Virus genome (UHGV): UHGV-0062900
DNA: 12,192 bases
Source: a virus
Strand: one strand, 5' to 3'
Shown here one piece after another: positions 1,749-9,872 of this stretch. The stretch's first letter is position 1. The number at the start of each line of letters is the position of its first letter. Position numbers and translations under genes: made by a program. The notes beneath the pieces are model-generated. The model did no database searches and had not been told where the DNA came from. It was given only the letters and a program-made list of their open reading frames with translations.

Positions 1749-2111
1749 TTAATCCATATCTAAGCTAACATTTAGAATAGCTAGACAACCTTCTATAAAT
1801 CCCTCAGCCATCTGTATCTCAATGCGTATTATTTTCTCATCCTTTTTGCGAGCTTTAGCGAGCTTTCTTTTAGAGATACCGTATAGGTAATGGGCAACAA
1901 GAAGCGAGTGTTCTTCAGGTCTTTTTTGCTTTAGACGAGCAAGACAACCTTCAATAATTAATGCATCACTATCTGAACAAGCCTGACGTGTTTTGCTTGT
2001 ATAGGGAAGAAGCCCTTTAAACCCAGCAGCTATAGGCGAATAGTCTACCCCAGAACTATCACTCGCCGCCCATGCACCCCAACGATCCAGAACCATCTGA
2101 ATATCACGCAT
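1749..2111 (-). CDS. Late-gene antiterminator Q, phage-21/QuuD-type (Phage_antitermQ family)
   Basis: Translation MRDIQMVLDRWGAWAA...IAAGFKGL...AEGFIEGCLAIL matches the remembered pattern of the short (~125 aa) Q family such as DLP12 QuuD. The track ORF starts at a TTG at 2126; ATG at 2111 is preceded by GGAGA at the right spacing, so 2111 is taken as the start (120 aa). Last gene of the nin operon, as expected for Q. Confidence 0.72.
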   Translation of the reverse strand: MRDIQMVLDRWGAWAASDSSGVDYSPIAAGFKGLLPYTSKTRQACSDSDALIIEGCLARLKQKRPEEHSLLVAHYLYGISKRKLAKARKKDEKIIRIEIQMAEGFIEGCLAILNVSLDMD

Positions 2112-2128
2112 CAACTTTCTCCACAAAA

Positions 2129-3124
2129 TCAGGCCAGCACGCCAGTTGCCAGCGCGCGATCGATAAAACGAAATATCAGCTCCAACTGGGAGCCATACTT
2201 CTCTTCAAATGCCACGGTATCCGCATGCAGCTCGTCGTGATGCTTTCTGCACAAAGGCAGCACGAAGAGGTCATGCGCTTTTGTACCTATTCCACCCTGA
2301 CCGTGGCCTATCAGGTGGTGGGGATCATCAGCAGGCTTTCCACAACATGCACACGGCTGCGTCTTAACCCAGCGCGTGTACTTTTCGTTAACCCAGCGGC
2401 GACGTTTTGGGCGTAACATAAAAGACTCCGGCGACTCCGGATCCACTTTCAGCGCCAGCACCTTTTTCGCTTTATTCTGGATGATGCTGGTGGCCGGAAC
2501 CGAAGGAACAAGGTCACTCTCCCGGGTGACAGACGGCACAACAGGCTTCGGTAATCTCAGTGCCTTACGGGCTGCACTTTCAGGTAAGGCATCCGCCAGA
2601 TCATTACGAACCAGCCACCAGCACAGTTCCGGCATTGTCACAACGTGACTATCATCAAAACCGAGATCCCGACGCACGACAGACAACACCCAGCGGGCAC
2701 AGTTATCCGTTGCCATTGATTCCAGCCGTTCCGTGAACTGATCGCGCAGCTGGTTATCGCAGTGCCAGCACAGACAGATTGCGCCCGGCGCGTGACGCAT
2801 TGTGGTCATGTTCTCGCTGTGCCAGTCGGAATGAGGCCACTGGCAGCCTTTTTCACGAAGTAACCAGCTTTCAAGACATTCCACGCCACCAGCACGACGG
2901 ATCACTGCCTCATTGCGGAACACGGCCCGAACGGCAGGATCATCCGCCAGCGGTTGTGATGCCGCCGGAACAGCACCACTGGCGAAAGATGAATAACGTT
3001 CCGGCTCAGGCTCCAGCAGGACACGCCCCTGCATAAACAGGGGCATCAGCTCTGAACCTGGTCTGAACAATACGATCCCCATACGCGGGGCAATTTCAGG
3101 GGTCAGTAGTGCTCTCACGGTCAC
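2129..3124 (-). CDS. DUF968-family phage protein with C-terminal Cys/His-rich (HNH-like) motif (YdfU-like)
   Basis: 331-aa ORF; C-terminus CACCGKPADDPHHLIGHGQGG...LCRKHHDELHAD and an internal CLCWHCDNQ motif resemble the DUF968/YdfU family of lambdoid nin regions (family assignment from memory). Start is uncertain: the track start at 3124 is a GTG, 1 nt after the upstream stop; the first in-frame ATG is at 3082. Confidence 0.6.
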   Translation of the reverse strand: MTVRALLTPEIAPRMGIVLFRPGSELMPLFMQGRVLLEPEPERYSSFASGAVPAASQPLADDPAVRAVFRNEAVIRRAGGVECLESWLLREKGCQWPHSDWHSENMTTMRHAPGAICLCWHCDNQLRDQFTERLESMATDNCARWVLSVVRRDLGFDDSHVVTMPELCWWLVRNDLADALPESAARKALRLPKPVVPSVTRESDLVPSVPATSIIQNKAKKVLALKVDPESPESFMLRPKRRRWVNEKYTRWVKTQPCACCGKPADDPHHLIGHGQGGIGTKAHDLFVLPLCRKHHDELHADTVAFEEKYGSQLELIFRFIDRALATGVLA

Positions 3125-3125
3125 C

Positions 3126-3923
3126 TCAATGAACGGTATCGAGCAGCTTTAACAGCTCAGGGAATCGGGATTCGAAGAAATGCGGCTGCGTCTCGCGCGG
3201 ATTTGCGGGACTGGTGATGTTCTTGCCGAACATGCAGCCTTTCGCTGTCAGCGACCAGAATTTTTTGATGTTGTTAATCGCGGTACGGCTGTATCGTTCG
3301 CGCTGCTCGACGATCCCCAGCTTCGCCATCTGGTGATATGCCTGATTAGCTGTTAGGCGGATACCATACTGTTTCAGCAGTGCACTCAGCGACAGCGTAG
3401 GGCGACTTGAGCCATCAGGCGCGTCTGCAGGAGCATCAATGGCATAGCGTGGTGCCAGATTCGGTAAGCCAACAGCCTCCTGGAGTTTCTGACAGGCCCC
3501 AAGCACAGATGAGTTAGACAGGTTTAACTCCCGGCGCATAAAGTCCAGCAGAATCACGCCAGCCTGCATCTTGTCAGCAGCCTGCCCGGATAATTTTTCC
3601 GGTGCGCTGGTTACCATATCGAAAGTACGGATCACCTTCAGATGGAATGACGGGCTGATCCACATTGCATAGGCATACACCAGTTCTTTGCAGACATACG
3701 TCCCCTGGTTATTTCCGCCACGACTAACGTTAACTGGCTCTATATTGACCGAGTTGCAAATCTGCAACTCGCTTATTAAACGTTCGGTTTGCTCATTGCG
3801 GAGCCAGAATGCAGGCTTATGCTTATCCAGAGAACCAGCAGCCCTGTGCAGATCGTTCAGGCTGTAACGCCCATAAGCATCACGACGAACTTCAATACCA
3901 TCAATGACCATCAGATTATTCAT
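3126..3923 (-). CDS. KilA-N domain protein (Roi/antirepressor-like)
   Basis: N-terminal MNNLMVIDGIEVRRDAYGRYSLNDLHRAAG...KPAFWLRNEQTERLI...GTYVCKELVYAYAMWISPSFHLKVI is a KilA-N-type domain; the C-terminal half is antirepressor-like. Start set at ATG 3923, preceded by AAGAGGAGA 8 nt upstream; the track start at 3956 would overlap rusA by 14 nt. Confidence 0.65.
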   Translation of the reverse strand: MNNLMVIDGIEVRRDAYGRYSLNDLHRAAGSLDKHKPAFWLRNEQTERLISELQICNSVNIEPVNVSRGGNNQGTYVCKELVYAYAMWISPSFHLKVIRTFDMVTSAPEKLSGQAADKMQAGVILLDFMRRELNLSNSSVLGACQKLQEAVGLPNLAPRYAIDAPADAPDGSSRPTLSLSALLKQYGIRLTANQAYHQMAKLGIVEQRERYSRTAINNIKKFWSLTAKGCMFGKNITSPANPRETQPHFFESRFPELLKLLDTVH

Positions 3924-3942
3924 ATTTCGTTTCTCCTCTTGA

Positions 3943-4332
3943 TCAGGCGGCTGCACCCGCCGTTTTCTCGTACTTACTGATAGTGATCTCGACCTTCCCT
4001 TCCGGGATAACCGGTCCCCACTCCACCAGCATTCTTTTCACCTGGCTGTCGTCTTCCCACACACCCGCGTGGGTCAGGGCGTCAAACAGCGCCTTGTTAT
4101 AGTTGTCCAGATCGCGGATCCGGTTATCCGGAGGAAACAACACGATCTCCACTGAAGCAGGTGCCGACGTTGGTTTTGGCAGACGACGTAACTGCTCAAC
4201 TATTGCTGCACACGCCGCGCTCTGGAATTTGCGCCCCGCCGCGCTTATCAGGCTCTTACCTGCAAACGCCCCTTTGTTGGGGTGTCGCCAGTACGTGTTC
4301 ACGCTGGGCGGGAAAGGCAGGATCAGCTTCAT
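3943..4332 (-). CDS. rusA: RusA-family Holliday junction resolvase
   Basis: 129 aa; LPFPPSVNTYWRH...RDLDNYNKALFDALTHAGVWEDDSQV carries the conserved RusA motifs (DLDN, FDAL, xDDxQ). ATGA overlap with the upstream gene stop. Confidence 0.85.
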   Translation of the reverse strand: MKLILPFPPSVNTYWRHPNKGAFAGKSLISAAGRKFQSAACAAIVEQLRRLPKPTSAPASVEIVLFPPDNRIRDLDNYNKALFDALTHAGVWEDDSQVKRMLVEWGPVIPEGKVEITISKYEKTAGAAA

Positions 4333-4655
4333 ACTTTCAGACCCCTCTCATGTAACCAGTGGGCTGCACGCAGCCTGGCGTTTTCCTCACCGGCAAGCAG
4401 TGAGCGGATAATCCCGACCGCCTCGCTGTCGTCGTCCTTGACCGCGGTATGAAGCGTTATCCCCCGGGCCACACCACGCTTTATCGTGATGACGCCTTTT
4501 TTCTCCAGTGCGCGAAGATGCTCCACCGCTGCATTCACCGAACGGTATCCCAGCATGGTTGCCACCTCCTGATTGGTTGGCGGGAAGCCACGTTCTTTCT
4601 GATAAGAAATCAGCATATCCAGCACCTGCTGCTGGCATTGAGTTAACGTCGTCAT
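4329..4655 (-). CDS. LexA N-terminal DNA-binding-domain-like protein lacking the S24 peptidase domain
   Basis: 108 aa; MTTLTQCQQQVLDMLISYQKERGFPPTNQEVATMLGYRSVNAAVEHLRALEKKGVITIKRGVARGITL aligns with the LexA winged-helix domain (MKALTARQQEVFDLI...[36 protein letters not shown]...RGIRL). There is no Ser/Lys peptidase domain. GGGAGA Shine-Dalgarno 7 nt upstream; ATGA coupling to the methyltransferase stop. Confidence 0.7.
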   Translation of the reverse strand: MTTLTQCQQQVLDMLISYQKERGFPPTNQEVATMLGYRSVNAAVEHLRALEKKGVITIKRGVARGITLHTAVKDDDSEAVGIIRSLLAGEENARLRAAHWLHERGLKV

Positions 4656-5305
4656 GCCACCATCTCCCTGACCAGTTTTTCTGCCTGCTGGCGAACCTGC
4701 GCCAGAAAGGCCTCACCACATGCCTCAAGTTCATCGCGCCCGATGTAGCTGATTGCCGGTCCCTTCCAGGTCTTGTCGAAAACAGCAATAGCACCAGCGA
4801 AGAAAGCTCCTGTCGGCACCTGCTTCTCATCCTTCGGGATAAACCAGGCAGGCAGTTCAAAACCGATACGCCCGCGAATAAAAGCAATATGATCTGCATC
4901 TTCCGGCCACCACACTTCGCTGGTGGCAGCTTTGATCAGGAAAACATAGCGCCCACCTTTATCACGCATGGCACTGGCATGCTTCATGATGTAACGCATG
5001 CCTGTGATGTATTGCCCCTCATGCTGACTGGCGCGGCTGTATGGGGGATTACCAAAGGCAGCACCTTTAAGCTCCGCAAGGCGTTCTGACCAGTCATGCG
5101 CCAGCGCGTTGTCTTCCGCCGTGTAATACGCAGCACATTTGGCGTTATCACCGTCAGTGAACAGATCCAGAACAAACGGGCCAAACAGGGTGTTAATTCC
5201 CCAGAAAATGTTGTCCGGCGTGCGCCACTGATCGCCCACTTCCTTCAGTTCATGGGCTGGTTTGTTCCGCAGTTCCACCAGCGCCTGGCAATATTTATTA
5301 CTCAT
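4652..5305 (-). CDS. Phage-type DNA N6-adenine methyltransferase (Dam-like, NPPY motif)
   Basis: W-TP ... DLFTDGD ... AFGNPPYSRA motifs are typical of the phage Dam family. Start set at ATG 5305, which overlaps the upstream stop as TAATG; the track start at 5338 is a GTG giving 228 aa. Confidence 0.75.
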   Translation of the reverse strand: MSNKYCQALVELRNKPAHELKEVGDQWRTPDNIFWGINTLFGPFVLDLFTDGDNAKCAAYYTAEDNALAHDWSERLAELKGAAFGNPPYSRASQHEGQYITGMRYIMKHASAMRDKGGRYVFLIKAATSEVWWPEDADHIAFIRGRIGFELPAWFIPKDEKQVPTGAFFAGAIAVFDKTWKGPAISYIGRDELEACGEAFLAQVRQQAEKLVREMVA

Positions 5306-5799
5306 TAAGCCCCCACGTAATTCCCTGACAGATACCACTCATCACCCGGTACAGCGCGCTTGCTGCTTTTCCGTAAACACCGCTCACGACGCGCAAGAAA
5401 ATTGTTTCGCTCTGGCTGGGAGTGGCTTTCACGGAATGCCGCCATCCACACCGTTGCAGCACGACGGTATAAGCCCCTCGACTCCAGTTCTTCCGCCTGG
5501 CGGGTCAGGCACAAAATCACCCGGGGATCGTTAGTGCCGACATAGAAATTGCGCACAGGTCTGGTTTCACGAACTGGTTGCGGTTCCGCCTCCTGCGCTC
5601 TCTCAGTCAGGCGCGGGAAATGTCTGCGTGTATCCCCTTCACAACGGTGAGCCACACGACCACTCTGACGTAACTTGCTTGCTGACTGCAGAACGCGCTG
5701 CCGTGAGTAACCTGCAAAAGCATCCGCAATGTCTCCGGAAGTACACCCCGGATGGGCTTCAATGTATTTCTGAACTTCATTCAAAAGACTCATGATCAC
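5305..5799 (-). CDS. YfdN-like prophage protein (164 aa) with PerC-like C-terminal motif
   Basis: Length equals that remembered for K-12 CPS-53 YfdN (164 aa). C-terminal LESRGLYRRAATVWMAAF resembles the PerC/Pch activator signature (from memory). The track start at 5799 is a GTG; ATG at 5793 is an alternative. Stop overlaps the methyltransferase start. Confidence 0.55.
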   Translation of the reverse strand: MIMSLLNEVQKYIEAHPGCTSGDIADAFAGYSRQRVLQSASKLRQSGRVAHRCEGDTRRHFPRLTERAQEAEPQPVRETRPVRNFYVGTNDPRVILCLTRQAEELESRGLYRRAATVWMAAFRESHSQPERNNFLARRERCLRKSSKRAVPGDEWYLSGNYVGA

Positions 5800-6614
5800 C
5801 CCCTGAATCCTGCCGGGATCTGGCTGTAGTCCACGTTGTCGTAACTGGCTTTGAAGTACGGGTCCTCGCGTCTGGCTGCAGATACCGCAGGAACTTCCCA
5901 GGATTCTTCGAAATGACGATCCGGACCAAAGAACGTGACAGCCTGTTTCACAAATTGTGTGCCGCTGTTACCCATCGCAGATACCCAGCCCGCGTAGCGT
6001 TTCACACCTTCCAGCATGGTTTCGGGGTTTACCCCCTCATTCAAACGGGCTTTCCAGGCTTTGAAGGCTGCAGATTTTGAATTGCCACCAGCACGTTTGG
6101 GATATACCAGCCATGCCTGCTCAAACTCCGGAGAGTATTCCGGTCGGTTTGAACGAACTCGCACGGACTCATCAACTGATGCACCAACAGCTATTGGTTC
6201 ATTGACTGGTTCTTTGACTGGTTCAAAAGAGTGACTGGTTCTGGGTGAATCTCCTGCACTACCCCCTGGTGCAACTCCTGCACTACCTGGTGAATTTGCT
6301 GCACCAGATAGTGAATTATTTGCACTACCCCCTAGTGAATCTCCTGCACCATCAAGATGAAGGAGATAGATATTACTTGAGTTACCTTTTTCACCTTTCC
6401 GGGTGACTTTTTTTACCAGCCCGGACTCACAAAGGGCCGCAATATGATTCATCACAGAACGTTTGCTAATCTCGCACTGGTCAGCAATATGCTGGTAGCT
6501 GGGCCAGCACTCACCCTGATCGCTGGCATTATCAGCCAGCTTGATCAGAACCAGTTTTCGCAATGGATTACCCACTCGAATTTTCATCGCTTTAACCATC
6601 AGCTCCATACTCAT
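5796..6614 (-). CDS. Replication initiator, O-like: N-terminal winged-helix/HTH domain, Gly/Ser/Ala-rich linker, C-terminal domain
   Basis: N-terminus KIRVGNPLRKLVLIKLADNASDQGECWPSYQHIADQCEISKRSVMNHIAALCESGLVKK is the HTH type common in phage replication proteins. Low-complexity linker GDSLGGSANNSLSGAANSPGSAGVAPGGSAGDSP is encoded by tandem DNA repeats. Position matches K-12 yfdO (O-like fragment). ATGA overlap with the upstream gene. Confidence 0.6.
   Translation of the reverse strand: MSMELMVKAMKIRVGNPLRKLVLIKLADNASDQGECWPSYQHIADQCEISKRSVMNHIAALCESGLVKKVTRKGEKGNSSNIYLLHLDGAGDSLGGSANNSLSGAANSPGSAGVAPGGSAGDSPRTSHSFEPVKEPVNEPIAVGASVDESVRVRSNRPEYSPEFEQAWLVYPKRAGGNSKSAAFKAWKARLNEGVNPETMLEGVKRYAGWVSAMGNSGTQFVKQAVTFFGPDRHFEESWEVPAVSAARREDPYFKASYDNVDYSQIPAGFRG
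6202..6353. repeat. Iteron-like tandem direct repeats inside the O-like gene (candidate replication origin)
   Basis: Three copies of TGACTGGTTC at 6203-6212, 6215-6224 and 6232-6241. Then about five imperfect ~21-24 bp units built on tgcact-acc(cc)-ctggtgaa at roughly 6244-6270, 6271-6293, 6294-6315, 6316-6339 and 6340-6353. Moderately AT-rich stretch follows at about 6355-6420. Confidence 0.6.
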
Positions 6615-6847
6615 GCTGCACCTCCGAGATGCTTCATGTTTTTTCCGGAGCGAAAGGCTATAAGCGGCATACTGACGCGGTAATTACGGCCAAGCGGTTC
6701 ACAAATCACCTTCTGGCATTCACGGTCAACCAGGCTAACACGTAGAACATGCCCTGCAGGTGTGGTGTACCACTGCCCAACTGTAGGAATTGATATTTTT
6801 TTACGCTGAAGTAAACGGTGAATATTGAGGATCAACGGATTAAGCAT
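6611..6847 (-). CDS. Hypothetical small protein (78 aa)
   Basis: ORF within the coupled operon; its ATG lies 2 nt upstream of the stop of the preceding gene, and its stop overlaps the O-like start (ATGA). No recognisable motif. Confidence 0.4.
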   Translation of the reverse strand: MLNPLILNIHRLLQRKKISIPTVGQWYTTPAGHVLRVSLVDRECQKVICEPLGRNYRVSMPLIAFRSGKNMKHLGGAA

Positions 6848-7676
6848 GACGATGCCCTCCGCTGATATTCAGGAGACGGTGAATATGAAGATTAGCCTTA
6901 TCCGCCAAACGAATACGTTCAGCCTGCAAGTTAAGAAGGGTTTCTACCAGAAGTTGATGCGCCTGCGGATCTGAAAGAGTTACCTTGCGCAGAGCACGTA
7001 GTGCTGTTGTTACATAACTGAGTTTATGTAAGTCTTCATCATTCAGACGAGTGAGGGCTGGGACAGTAGCCATGATGGCAGCCTCCTTGATCGGTGAAAT
7101 ACTTCCACCACCGGAAACGCCAATTTCGCTGGTGGTGAACTGAACGGGGTTGGCGTAACCGGTGATCAAGGAAACCGGCGCATCTTTCGATGCCCCCGCC
7201 CAGCCCACCATAACTTTGATGTGAGCAAATGCGGACGATAAAAAAGACGCTGGCGCGTCATATATCGCCTTGATCAATTCCAGGACGCCAATCCCGGCAC
7301 CCGCTTTATAAGGTGCCTGAACAGTGTAACGTCCCGGAATGGCAGAATCAATGTGCTGGTGGTCCTTCACACTCAATAAAATCACGCCTGAATTTCCACA
7401 AAGGACTAAAGCACTCATGCGGGTAGTCTTTGCGAAGATAGATAACGCGCTGTGTTTCTGGCTCCCAACGAATAACATGAACATAAAGTCCTCTTCCGTC
7501 ACGAAACCAGCGGTTAAGTTCCTGCACAACTCGCCCCCCACAGTCAGGTAAAGTTCTCTGTGGTTACTTACAGCCAGGTGATTTGGTAATCTGCATTCAT
7601 GCCGTAACAACAGGTGTTCAGCGACGCTGACCACCAGCTGTTGCGACAAACGGTTATTTGCCGTTAAACTGTTCAT
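6840..7676 (-). CDS. Hypothetical protein (278 aa) in the replication module; function unknown
   Basis: Long ORF, ATGA-coupled to the upstream gene. No Walker A motif, so not an obvious DnaC/P-type helicase loader. No family recognised. Confidence 0.5.
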   Translation of the reverse strand: MNSLTANNRLSQQLVVSVAEHLLLRHECRLPNHLAVSNHRELYLTVGGELCRNLTAGFVTEEDFMFMLFVGSQKHSALSIFAKTTRMSALVLCGNSGVILLSVKDHQHIDSAIPGRYTVQAPYKAGAGIGVLELIKAIYDAPASFLSSAFAHIKVMVGWAGASKDAPVSLITGYANPVQFTTSEIGVSGGGSISPIKEAAIMATVPALTRLNDEDLHKLSYVTTALRALRKVTLSDPQAHQLLVETLLNLQAERIRLADKANLHIHRLLNISGGHRHA

Positions 7677-8236
7677 GCGTTAGTTTCTCCACAGACACAA
7701 AACGCCACGACGCCCGGAGCTGCACACTCGCGGGCGTCACTCTTTTCTGGAGCGCAAAAGATTTTGTAGACCAGTGCTGCATGCTCTTGGAGCTTCGAAA
7801 TTGACAGATACAACTCATCATTAATTGCTGTCTGCTCGTGTGGCTCCACGACCCCATCTTCGATTGCCGAACGAATCTGCTTTGAGTAATTCCCGATCTG
7901 TTCGATGACTTCCAGCAGGCGCTGGTTTATATCGGCGTTCTCTACTTCCTCAATTTCAGGAAGCGATACGAACACCCCACCAGCAGACTGTGCGACAGCA
8001 TCCGCAATGTAGTGAGTGCCAGCCGCGCGCTGTAAAACCATTGCCCATCCCAGCGGGAAAATCTGATCGCCATCGGCACGAAGGCGGTTAAATAATGCGT
8101 TCTCTGTTACATCCAGCCAGTCAGCTGCTTCAGCGTAACCACCCGGCAACGCTGCGATAGTTTTTCTGACAGCTTTCACGTACCACTCAGGCTGTTTTTC
8201 TACTTTCCAGTGATACTTACCCACGGTTAGCCTCAT
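7673..8236 (-). CDS. cII-position regulator candidate (possibly YdaT-like CII functional analogue)
   Basis: 187-aa ORF immediately downstream of cro, where lambdoid phages encode CII or YdaT. Assignment is by position only; sequence family not verified. Confidence 0.45.
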   Translation of the reverse strand: MRLTVGKYHWKVEKQPEWYVKAVRKTIAALPGGYAEAADWLDVTENALFNRLRADGDQIFPLGWAMVLQRAAGTHYIADAVAQSAGGVFVSLPEIEEVENADINQRLLEVIEQIGNYSKQIRSAIEDGVVEPHEQTAINDELYLSISKLQEHAALVYKIFCAPEKSDARECAAPGVVAFCVCGETNA

Positions 8237-8267: not shown

Positions 8268-8468
8268 TTAATCTTTCGGATAGATATCCGGTCTTAAGTC
8301 AGATTTCGTAATTGCACCTGACGTGCATTGCTCAAGTTTTTTCGCCAGCACAAAACTGGCTTTTTTATAACCATTGAAAACCAGCCGTAAGTAGCCAGGT
8401 GTTGAGCCAACTTTTCCGGCCAACTCGCCCTGCTGTTCTTTGGTTAAAGAGTCCCAATACGCTTTCAT
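8268..8468 (-). CDS. Cro-like small DNA-binding regulator
   Basis: 66 aa from ATG 8468 (MKAYWDSLTKEQQGELAGKVGSTPGYLRLVFNGYKK...), with GGAGG (complement of 8479-8483) upstream. The track start at 8492 coincides with the predicted PR -10 and is rejected. Divergent from the cI-type repressor. Confidence 0.65.
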   Translation of the reverse strand: MKAYWDSLTKEQQGELAGKVGSTPGYLRLVFNGYKKASFVLAKKLEQCTSGAITKSDLRPDIYPKD

Positions 8469-8558
8469 ACAATATGTACCTCCGGTATACATATTACATG
8501 ATTAAAATGAACCTTCAAGATACTTGTACCTTATCGGTACAAAGGTTTTAATTTCGTT
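8469..8558. promoter_or_regulatory. Immunity switch region: divergent PR (leftward) and PRM-like (rightward) promoters with dyad operator candidates
   Basis: PR on the minus strand: -35 TTGAAG (complement of 8513-8518), 16-nt spacer, -10 TAATAT (complement of 8491-8496). PRM-like on the plus strand: -35 TTGTAC 8524-8529, 17-nt spacer, -10 TTTAAT 8547-8552, with cI ATG at 8559, implying a leaderless cI mRNA. Dyads: TTGTACC-ttatc-GGTACAA at 8524-8542; CATACAA-T-ATGTACC at 8466-8480, which resembles the OL palindrome. Confidence 0.55.
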
Positions 8559-9233
8559 ATGAAAACAATCCATGACATCCGGCGGTCTAACGCCAGAAAA
8601 CTGAGAGATGGTGTTGGCGGAAATTCATCCTTTGCCACCATGATTGATCGCGAGCCAACCCAAACCAGCAGGTTTATGGGGGATGGCGCTACTAAAAATA
8701 TCGGTGACAGCATGGCACGGCACATCGAAAAATGTTTCGACCTGCCTGTCGGATGGCTTGATCAAGAACACCAGACAACGAACATCACAAAAAAACCTGA
8801 TGTTTCAATCACTAACAAACAAATAACGTTAGTCCCTGTCATATCATGGGTACAGGCCGGAGCATGGAAAGAAGTTGGCTATTCTGAGGTTGATTTGAGC
8901 ACAGCAGAAACGTATCCCTGCCCTGTACCCTGTGGCGAAATGACTTATATCTTGCGGGTGATTGGTGATTCAATGATTGATGAGTACCGCCCTGGAGACA
9001 TGATTTTTGTTGATCCCGAAGTCCCTGCCTGCCACGGTGACGACGTTATTGCATTGATGCACGATACAGGCGAAACCACCTTCAAGCGATTGATAGAAGA
9101 TGGAACACAGCGTTATCTCAAAGCATTAAACCCAAACTGGCCTGAGCCTTACATTAAGATTAACGGTAATTGCTCTATAATTGGTACAGTGATTTTCTCG
9201 GGAAAACCAAGAAGATACACAATAAAGGCCTAA
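8559..9233 (+). CDS. CI-type prophage repressor with C-terminal S24 (LexA-like) autopeptidase domain
   Basis: 224 aa. C-terminal VIGDSMIDEY...GDMIFVDPE...TFKRL carries the Ser (GDSM) and Lys (FKRL) catalytic dyad; a candidate Ala-Gly cleavage site lies in VQAGAW. N-terminal HTH-like region. Divergent from cro. Confidence 0.85.
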   Translation: MKTIHDIRRSNARKLRDGVGGNSSFATMIDREPTQTSRFMGDGATKNIGDSMARHIEKCFDLPVGWLDQEHQTTNITKKPDVSITNKQITLVPVISWVQAGAWKEVGYSEVDLSTAETYPCPVPCGEMTYILRVIGDSMIDEYRPGDMIFVDPEVPACHGDDVIALMHDTGETTFKRLIEDGTQRYLKALNPNWPEPYIKINGNCSIIGTVIFSGKPRRYTIKA

Positions 9234-9245
9234 TCAATATTTATG

Positions 9246-9268
9246 AACCTGCTTCGGCAGGTTTTTTT
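9246..9268 (+). terminator. Rho-independent terminator downstream of the repressor gene
   Basis: aacctgc-ttcg-gcaggtt: 7-bp stem with GNRA-like tetraloop, followed immediately by ttttt(t), 13 nt after the cI stop. Confidence 0.7.
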
Positions 9269-9272
9269 ATAC

Positions 9273-9305
9273 TTGACAATGTACCCATGAGATACATAAT
9301 GTATC
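9273..9305 (+). promoter_or_regulatory. PL-like early-left promoter with overlapping operator palindrome
   Basis: -35 TTGACA 9273-9278, 16-nt spacer, -10 CATAAT 9295-9300. Perfect 15-bp palindrome GATACAT-A-ATGTATC at 9291-9305 overlaps the -10; an ATGTACC half-site lies in the spacer (9279-9285). Confidence 0.6.
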
Positions 9306-9872
9306 TAAAAGAAACATAACACAGGCAAGATTAAAACAAAATTTGGTTGTAACACGGCGTATGGCACATGCGTCGTTAGCGGTCTGGTGACGTTAAAGGG
9401 GACAATCCACTCCTTGCTCGAGCAAACAAACCAGGTAGCCGGAATGTGCAAGTCAATGATGATGCTGATAAGACGCCTAACCAGCGTGGCGATTCGGTTT
9501 GACGCCTGGGAAGAGACCAGGGTGCAACGATGAGGGCATTTATGGAGCCGCGACAAAGTGTGGTGCCGTAACTGGCTAAGTGCTCTCAGCGTTGTGGTAA
9601 TCCGCGAAATGGCGCGGCGGTAAGTATGGCGGGGTTACTCTTTCCCCGTTGAGGACACCGGATTGTCAGGTTGACCAGCCACTGCTTTGGCGGTACCAGT
9701 TTGTACCCTTGCTTCCGGCTGGTACCGCTCTTTTTACAAAACAGAGAAGAGCATCACCGGACGACGGGCTCATAACCCAATCCATCCGGGCGGCAGTCAC
9801 CGCAGGTGTTCTTCTCTGTTTTGTGGAGAAACCAACCGACCTTGCAGGGTCGATATGATGAGGAGCAGCAAA
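9306..9872 (+). other. Long ORF-poor structured leader of the early-left operon (candidate cis-acting RNA element or sRNA)
   Basis: About 570 nt between the PL-like promoter and the first well-supported start (9873), with no plus-strand ORF over ~30 codons having a Shine-Dalgarno. Long-range inverted repeat: 9731-9755 pairs with 9805-9829 (perfect 14-bp core acaaaacagagaag / cttctctgttttgt), enclosing the hairpin gcgg-cagtca-ccgc (9790-9803). Additional hairpin ccgcg-aaatgg-cgcgg at 9602-9617. Confidence 0.35.

Follow-up and report, generated by a model that had tools for sequence, protein, structure and literature searches.

A LexA-type DNA-binding domain with a family-specific tail and no peptidase domain in SfV/mEp460-like prophages of Escherichia coli, a possible RecA-insensitive surrogate of LexA

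The DNA analysed here, referred to as the window, is a stretch of 12,192 nucleotides of the virus genome UHGV-0062900 and is the early region of a lambdoid, SfV/mEp460-like Escherichia coli prophage. Within its early operon lies a gene (4329-4655, minus strand) for a protein of 108 amino acids that joins the winged helix-turn-helix DNA-binding domain of LexA to a two-helix tail and lacks the S24 peptidase domain of LexA. We propose that this protein may act as a RecA-insensitive LexA surrogate binding CTGT-type SOS operators during lytic growth, a tentative reading that falls just short of being probable. The protein as an object is already known and correctly annotated and it is the mechanism that is our proposal. 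The gene and the parts of its product are given below.

4329-4655, minus strand: gene of the 108 amino acid LexA-like protein, stop codon included, with an ATG start, taken from the list of open reading frames
4452-4655, minus strand: LexA-type winged helix-turn-helix DNA-binding domain, codons 1-68, from Pfam and superposition of the model
4500-4538, minus strand: predicted recognition helix, codons 40-52, VNAAVEHLRALEK, a helix of the model that S39 directly precedes
4332-4451, minus strand: linker and family-specific two-helix tail, codons 69-108, a putative dimerisation element

A preliminary description of this DNA had recognised a LexA-type winged-helix domain in the protein, and our searches bear this out. 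The Pfam model PF01726 (LexA_DNA_bind) matches residues 1-65 over the whole of its profile (1-65/65) with E=2.9e-19 and 69 bits against a cut-off of 23.7, and a phmmer search of the PDB gave E-values of about 1e-15 to the DNA-binding domain of E. coli LexA (1lea) and to full-length LexA chains. In an ungapped comparison, residues 1-69 share 35/69 positions (51%) with E. coli LexA, and the motifs that had been named are all present, PPT at 25-27, RSVNAAVEHL at 38-47 and KGVITI at 53-58. The loss of the remainder of LexA is equally clear, as the Pfam search returned no match to PF00717 (S24 peptidase) in the 108 amino acid protein and the lexA equivalog model TIGR00498 covers model positions 1-91 of 203 only, at 70.8 bits and below its cut-off of 110.95.

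A structural check of the fold gave the same answer. An AlphaFold2 model computed from a 21-sequence family alignment has a mean predicted local distance difference test score (pLDDT) of 85.9 and consists of a winged helix-turn-helix at residues 1-68, a low-confidence linker at 69-74 and helices at 72-88 and 93-103, the two tail helices reaching a pLDDT of about 90. The top Foldseek match in the PDB is the LexA-operator DNA complex 3jso_B, which superposes with a root-mean-square deviation (rmsd) of 0.9 Å over 68 residues. No PDB fold match found by Foldseek covers the tail. The overall plan of a winged helix followed by C-terminal helices is that of BlaI/MecI, the N-terminal region of DtxR/MntR and MarR, by analogy only, as the tail has no detectable sequence homology to such repressors and the whole-chain Foldseek matches (2g9w, 6kta, MepR) are weak, with rmsd values of 5-12 Å and identities of 13-26%. 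A search of 1.84 billion representative proteins recovered short relatives (~105-118 amino acids) with 40-52% identity that align over the whole length and share the tail consensus EAxxxIRxLLAxExxARxRAxxWLxxxG, kept down to ~40% identity, so that the two-helix tail is a conserved part of the family and not read-through.

We also considered whether a trace of the LexA cleavage site survives. HMMER alignments place Ala88-Gly89 of the phage protein on Ala84-Gly85 of LexA with low posterior support at that point, and in most family members the pair is replaced, with LVGE, LANE, VERE, LTRK, IDDQ and other sequences in this position. As the Ala-Gly pair is not conserved and the stretch is predicted to be helical, Ala88-Gly89 is not regarded as a cleavage site. 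The earlier statement that the protein lacks a Ser/Lys autocleavage domain is borne out by the missing S24 domain. Since the S24 domain and a conserved cleavage site are absent, the window shows no autoregulatory boxes and the score is below the equivalog cut-off, the protein should not be filed as 'LexA' and is better described as a LexA-derived variant with a new C-terminal module.

In order to address DNA recognition we compared the residues that meet the operator. According to PMC13416735, which cites Knegtel 1995, Ser39, Asn41, Ala42, Glu44 and Glu45 of E. coli LexA take part in DNA binding, and at these five sites the window protein has S39, N41, A42, V44 and E45, four of them identical. 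H46 and the wing residues R64-G65-I66 are likewise those of E. coli LexA and P40 of LexA is a valine. Across family members at 35-50% identity S39, K53, R64, G65 and I66 are invariant, with N41 and H46 at least 90% conserved. The recognition helix of the window protein belongs to the gamma/beta-proteobacterial 'S-x-N-A-A-x-E-H' type, which we take to go with CTGT-N8-ACAG boxes. Compared with E. coli LexA (1lea, 3jso) the phage protein therefore has the same fold and most of the same contact residues, and differs from it by the missing S24 domain, the changes E44 to V and P40 to V, the absence of preceding SOS boxes in the window, its phage origin, and a two-helix tail of 40 residues to which nothing in LexA corresponds.

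There is a precedent for a LexA DNA-binding domain on its own. The N-terminal fragment of cleaved LexA retains some SOS-box binding and repression, and the cell removes this fragment with ClpXP, cleavage having revealed latent ClpX-recognition motifs (PMC10584840). The N-terminal wing is credited, through its contacts, with fixing the rigid spacing of LexA boxes (PMC8565304), so that a protein consisting of the DNA-binding domain only could still measure an SOS box, and by this analogy operator binding by the phage protein is plausible. The activity that we propose for it is thus one which LexA(1-84) already has. LexA dimerises through its C-terminal domain (PMC10584840) and, as this domain is absent here, heterodimers of the phage protein with host LexA, which the preliminary description had entertained, are unlikely; the helical tail of the model is instead the obvious candidate for self-association. 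The two proteins also differ at their ends, the phage protein terminating in ...ERGLKV after its extra helical tail. Neher and colleagues are said to have described in 2003 that the host fragment ends in ...VAA and is recognised by ClpXP. Unlike LexA(1-84), the phage protein should be stable and possibly dimeric. Metagenomic proteins of ~160 amino acids (P0152, P0156 and P0160) contain two tandem LexA-type DNA-binding domains and no S24 domain, and may be single-chain 'pseudo-dimers' that represent another way round the missing LexA C-terminal domain.

The window protein is identical to RefSeq WP_000210164.1, and the annotation of a copy with 100% identity names it a 'LexA family transcriptional regulator'. 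It is a member of PHROG 362, 'transcriptional repressor' (E=1.4e-59, residues 1-108 on profile 1-106/106), from whose records, which are annotations, it does not differ. Named members include SfV orf42 and mEp460 gp46 ('LexA DNA binding domain protein') together with those of cdtI, SfII, SfIV and Stx2a/Stx2c phages, all 96-100% identical and in the same position between Dam (or PerC) and RusA, and the family has been catalogued as Pham 237, pfam01726, in 15 Stx phages (PMC8136144). The gene sequence was found in 2233 of 5426 complete E. coli genomes (41%), mostly at 95-99% identity and in up to four copies per genome. All 85 copies gathered are intact (53 distinct nucleotide sequences), and the ratio of nonsynonymous to synonymous polymorphism (pN/pS) comes to 0.056 for the whole gene, with 0.014 for the DNA-binding domain and 0.145 for the tail, showing that the gene is under strong purifying selection. 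The window-type protein is nearly invariant while the immunity, Q and late modules that flank it are swapped between phages, and this would fit a target outside any one phage module, for example the SOS boxes of the host.

From these observations we infer a DNA target, a mode of dimerisation, a timing and a benefit. After induction or infection the protein would be expressed from the delayed-early rightward transcript by translational coupling between Dam and RusA. Its winged helix would recognise the half-sites of CTGT-type SOS operators, with the two-helix tail taking over self-association from the missing C-terminal domain of LexA. Activated RecA would be unable to remove a protein with neither an S24 domain nor a conserved cleavage site, and once host LexA had been destroyed, repression of SOS-box promoters could be re-imposed. 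Potential targets would be the host SOS regulon, promoters within this phage group (those of the late-region methylase, dinI-like and KilA-N/Rha antirepressor genes) and the LexA-controlled antirepressors of rival prophages.

A number of points weigh against this proposal. The LexA-box search suggested by the preliminary description came up empty, there being no credible SOS box in the window, where the best score was 9.9 on a 20-nucleotide matrix derived from an uncurated set of 20 E. coli boxes; the training boxes score 13-27 on it (minimum 13.2) and the median maximum in shuffled sequence is 9.7, so that the best site is within the shuffled range. Matches to CTGT-N8-ACAG with at most one mismatch occur in the window at chance level (5 against 4.3 expected), and the sole exact match, at 7558-7573 (CTGTGGTTACTTACAG), falls within the Ash-family gene and scores 8.0, its spacer being GC-rich. 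Half-site pairs at other spacings gave nothing convincing in the window, its inverted repeats include no CTGT/ACAG-armed palindrome near promoters, and the linked module at 2129-5338 contains no palindrome of this type. Nor does an autoregulatory SOS box precede the LexA-like gene in the window, where the gene is internal to the early operon. With regard to the protein itself, the position of LexA E44 is never acidic in the family and the recognition helix is altered in distant members (T42/I45 in P0207, L45 in P0172, Y41 in P0220 and G45 in P0088), from which it follows that not all members can read CTGT in the manner of LexA; the boxes upstream of P0207, P0172 and P0220 are canonical despite their altered helices. 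Strong boxes also occur in three of nine related control loci without a LexA-like gene, including the same methylase box as described below, and control loci show weak boxes between RusA and the next gene. A link at the level of whole genomes between the LexA-like gene and SOS boxes was dropped as unspecific on the strength of these gene-free loci. Finally, our literature search found catalogue entries only and no functional study of the family.

Relatives of the window nonetheless carry canonical SOS boxes with matrix scores of 20-27. One recurs at the 5' terminus of the late-region DNA methylase gene or shortly before it, at 34170-34189 in SfV (L134), 41021-41040 in mEp460 (L133), 8635-8654 in the close prophage relative L135, 7205-7224 in phage LLS (L142) and 7739-7758 in L007, its sequence in SfV and mEp460 being TACTGTAAAAATAAACAGTG, and the box of L135 corresponds to a site ~350 nucleotides outside the left edge of the window. 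This methylase occupies the slot between Q and the lysis genes where the stx genes sit in Stx phages, and the position of the box suggests that the orphan late methylase is LexA-controlled; the same box is also found in a phage that lacks the LexA-like gene. Two SOS boxes lie in the dinI-like promoter of mEp460. In five IMG/VR loci (L074 at 4700-4870, and L057, L076, L077 and L084) an SOS box, TACTGTATTTATGAACAGTG, lies between RusA and a variant KilA-N gene and is preceded by a terminator-like hairpin directly after RusA, the LexA-like gene there being 99% identical. The KilA-N protein of these loci has a different N-terminal domain and its gene looks like a LexA-repressed gene of antirepressor type, whereas the RusA and KilA-N genes of the window overlap, with no box between them. 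A separate observation concerns the repressors, where a near-perfect SOS box (26-27) lies within the coding sequence of an S24 cI-type gene, ~170-230 nucleotides from its start, at 31970-31989 in mEp460 (L133) and 836-855 in L002. The same or a near-identical box recurs at 1103-1122 in L090 and in 12 IMG/VR loci (for example L010 at 330 and L015 at 1094). The cI of the window is of another type and has no internal SOS box.

The association with SOS boxes is most direct in a distant branch of the family, in which the operon lies after a terminator and begins with a promoter whose canonical SOS box (20-27) overlaps the -10 element. In L006, L007 and L098 the box is followed by a small open reading frame (ORF), the LexA-like gene and then RusA, DUF968 and Q; the small ORF is phrog_1813 in L006 and L007, and an ORF of 67 amino acids after the LexA-like gene of L006 is phrog_1212. 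In L150 the SOS box is followed by DinI (513-785), a small ORF taken as phrog_1813 by analogy with L136, and the LexA-like gene with the remainder of the operon, while in L151 two SOS boxes precede a protein of 95 amino acids resembling the RecA C-terminal domain (2742-3097; PF21096, E=9e-10, 39 bits against a cut-off of 27), a small ORF and the LexA-like gene. The Edwardsiella phage EPP-1 has an SOS box, a Rha/Ant antirepressor and then a LexA DNA-binding domain of 71 amino acids. Judged from this arrangement, the LexA-like gene of such phages would be switched on when host LexA is cleaved, and in L150 and L151 the same operon encodes a protein acting on RecA or resembling it. The context fits a role inside the SOS circuit, such as feedback on SOS-box promoters or SOS shut-off. 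P0172, P0207 and P0220, with their altered recognition helices, belong to this branch, and these at least may recognise another sequence, and the free RecA C-terminal domain of L151 could for its part be a modulator of RecA. DinI-like proteins and GIL01 gp7 are likewise tools by which mobile elements damp or redirect SOS signalling and are unrelated in sequence to the LexA-like protein. GIL01 gp7 stabilises LexA on DNA, and both DinI and gp7 act on the RecA or LexA protein and do not replace LexA at the operator.

L006 shows two further features. Just before the SOS-box promoter of its operon from the LexA-like gene to Q, a reverse-strand pair at 2863-4232 interrupts the early operon and consists of an RNase_A_bac toxin-like gene and a gene with a faint immunity-like Pfam match to CdiI_2. 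Its repressor is a helix-turn-helix protein of 128 amino acids in which no S24 domain was detected, and for this reason the late operon of L006 may be controlled directly by host LexA.

Within the window the LexA-like gene lies inside the nin/Q operon, where the preliminary description had placed it, with Dam upstream and RusA, KilA-N, DUF968 and Q downstream. The annotated features, in order of transcription for the minus strand, are as follows.

8268-8492, minus strand: Cro-like gene, first in transcription order
7673-8236, minus strand: CII/CP76-like gene, after the Cro-like gene
6840-7676, minus strand: Ash-family gene
5796-6614, minus strand: replication gene
5305-5799, minus strand: PerC/YfdN-like gene
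4652-5338, minus strand: Dam, N6-adenine methyltransferase (PF05869, E=1.1e-45), with a TGA stop that overlaps the ATG of the LexA-like gene (ATGA)
4663-4668, minus strand: Shine-Dalgarno-like GGGAGA, 7 nucleotides upstream of the LexA-like ATG and inside the end of dam
3943-4332, minus strand: RusA Holliday-junction resolvase (PF05866, E=6.1e-15), whose ATG and the LexA-like stop codon TGA share the overlap ATGA
3126-3956, minus strand: KilA-N protein, from a Pfam match
2129-3124, minus strand: DUF968/HNH-like protein, from a Pfam match
1749-2126, minus strand: antiterminator Q, from a Pfam match
8559-9233, plus strand: CI-type prophage repressor with an S24 peptidase domain (PF00717 Peptidase_S24, E=1.5e-26)

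Both junctions of the LexA-like gene, on the Dam and on the RusA side, are 4-nucleotide overlaps, and these together with the Shine-Dalgarno sequence indicate that the protein is made within the Dam-RusA stretch of the early-right operon. A consensus scan of the minus strand over 4655-5800 found no promoter belonging to the gene, and an internal promoter giving expression in lysogens was rejected on this ground; a putative dam promoter has been annotated in SfV by its authors. The closest complete phages are 1720a-02, Stx2a/Stx2c phages, mEp460 and SfV, with 97-98% identity over 3900-5400, and the order KilA-N, DUF968, Q recurs in relatives. The same prophage was also said to encode a classical cleavable CI, and the repressor at 8559-9233 indeed has an Ala-Gly pair at 100-101, a GDSM serine motif and Lys176; its counterpart in L135 is annotated ymfK, 'LexA family protein'. 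The further suggestion that two LexA-superfamily regulators coexist calls for rephrasing, in that CI is LexA-like only in its S24 half and the 108 amino acid protein only in its winged-helix half, and no Pfam domain shared between them was detected.

Several other features of the region are recorded here. A terminator-like hairpin (9245-9264) follows cI and is itself followed by a near-consensus promoter, TTGACA-16-CATAAT (9273-9300), which is overlapped by a palindrome of the ATGTA-N9-TACAT type (9279-9317). A similar palindrome lies at 8465-8501 in the divergent region between cro and cI, and in this immunity type the two probably serve as OL and OR. At the other end of the window a two-gene plus-strand cassette (306-1705) is convergent to Q and encodes a DUF6731 protein (306-1238, Pfam E=2.6e-11) and a hydrophobic, probably membrane protein of 150 amino acids (1253-1705), with a perfect hairpin of a 10-bp stem at 1709-1734 between the cassette and Q. 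In relatives the position after Q is occupied by other cargo genes on the reverse strand, at 9252-11641 in L135, 5635-6453 in mEp390 (L138) and 2586-3978 in a Klebsiella phage (L136), in the last case behind an SOS box at 3994, and this position looks like a cargo site or possible defence hotspot. Neither protein of the window cassette matches in PADLOC, and the PADLOC defence libraries gave no meaningful match for the LexA-like protein or its neighbours.

In order to see how far the neighbourhood is kept we compared gene order in about two dozen diverged loci of phage, genome and metagenome origin, the profile search of genome contigs having used a 7-sequence family alignment. The early-right (nin) order is shared by the window, SfV, mEp460, mEp390 and loci from metagenomes, genomes and virus collections. 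In most of the diverged loci RusA lies directly downstream of the LexA-like gene or follows one ORF of 66-67 amino acids, and beyond it come KilA-N or Rha/ANT (or nothing) and then DUF968 and Q, with DUF968 found in every locus long enough to show it. The upstream neighbour varies and may be Dam, a C5 methylase, PerC or a replication gene. The link to RusA is not strict: the Klebsiella phage ST846-OXA48phi9.1 and L150 have no RusA between the LexA-like gene and DUF968, in EPP-1 a tail-less version of the protein follows the antirepressor and RusA is upstream behind another gene, and in L149 a reverse-strand gene separates the two. Conversely, vB_EcoS-733R5, YeP2 and AH07 have close Dam-RusA-DUF968-Q or RusA-DUF968-Q modules without a LexA-like gene. 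An obligate partnership with RusA was rejected on account of both kinds of locus, and so was a type II toxin-antitoxin pair, as the LexA-like gene and RusA each occur apart and RusA belongs to the resolvase family PF05866.

These comparisons bear on what else the protein might be. The main alternative, though an unlikely one, is a phage-specific transcription factor, the LexA-derived domain having come to recognise a phage operator of non-SOS type, for instance with another spacing or half-site, so that it would tune nin/Q or another phage promoter independently of host SOS. The variable recognition helices of P0207, P0172, P0220 and P0088 and the lack of an SOS box in the window would suit such a protein, and the new C-terminal module could set a new half-site spacing. 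Between lineages the LexA-like protein is also less conserved (42-51% identity) than RusA (66-79%) or DUF968 (50-68%), as expected if specificity diversifies. We found no candidate operator, however, either among the inverted repeats of the window or in the tightly linked module, and the retention of LexA contact residues together with near-invariance across differing phages is hard to square with a target borne by one particular phage module. It is quite improbable, in our view, that the protein serves as a DNA-binding accessory of RusA and/or the DUF968 HNH-like protein, produced in fixed ratio by translational coupling in order to target or restrain them. The ATGA overlap with rusA, the position of RusA next to the gene or after one small ORF in most diverged loci and the constant presence of DUF968 all speak for this, but the loci without an adjacent RusA and the related modules without a LexA-like gene do not, and a recognition surface under such extreme constraint argues for sequence-specific binding. 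RusA is moreover an autonomous resolvase in phage 82 and DLP12.

Two remaining explanations start from the extent of homology to LexA. In one, which we consider very improbable, the protein is an SOS decoy whose hinge or cleavage-like stretch (RSLLAGE against GRVAAGE in LexA) docks activated RecA or the C-terminal active site of LexA or CI and so modulates cleavage. The HMMER alignments to LexA and TIGR00498 do extend to residue 90-91 and thus take in the Ala-Gly pair, yet that pair is not conserved in the family, the alignment has low posterior support there, and the region is confidently predicted as an alpha-helix, unlike the strand-loop of LexA. In the other the gene is what is left of a captured lexA, decaying and without function, its product shorter than LexA and with homology that may reach just past the cleavage site. 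This is scarcely credible, being contradicted by the selection analysis with its uniformly intact copies and low pN/pS, and also by a tail kept at 40% identity, a good Shine-Dalgarno sequence with coupled translation, and presence in 2233 complete E. coli genomes.

The proposal of a RecA-insensitive surrogate has wider consequences. In its broadest form, which we regard as rather doubtful, lambdoid prophages in ~40% of E. coli would carry a RecA-proof surrogate LexA that turns the host SOS regulon off after induction and silences colicin genes, the antirepressors under LexA control in co-resident prophages and further elements triggered by SOS, and in related phages it would form part of an SOS-induced anti-SOS operon with DinI or a free RecA C-terminal domain. 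Should the protein instead have an operator of its own, it would show the retargeting by phages of a DNA-binding domain taken from a global regulator of the host. If, on the other hand, SOS boxes are what the protein binds, a sizeable fraction of the prophages of E. coli and Shigella and of Stx prophages would carry a switch that uncouples SOS expression from RecA when the phage is active, which would bear on Stx-phage induction and toxin release under antibiotics, on competition between co-resident prophages that use LexA-controlled antirepressors and on SOS-dependent mutagenesis in infected cells, and would provide a natural case of a repressor domain freed from its signal-sensing half.

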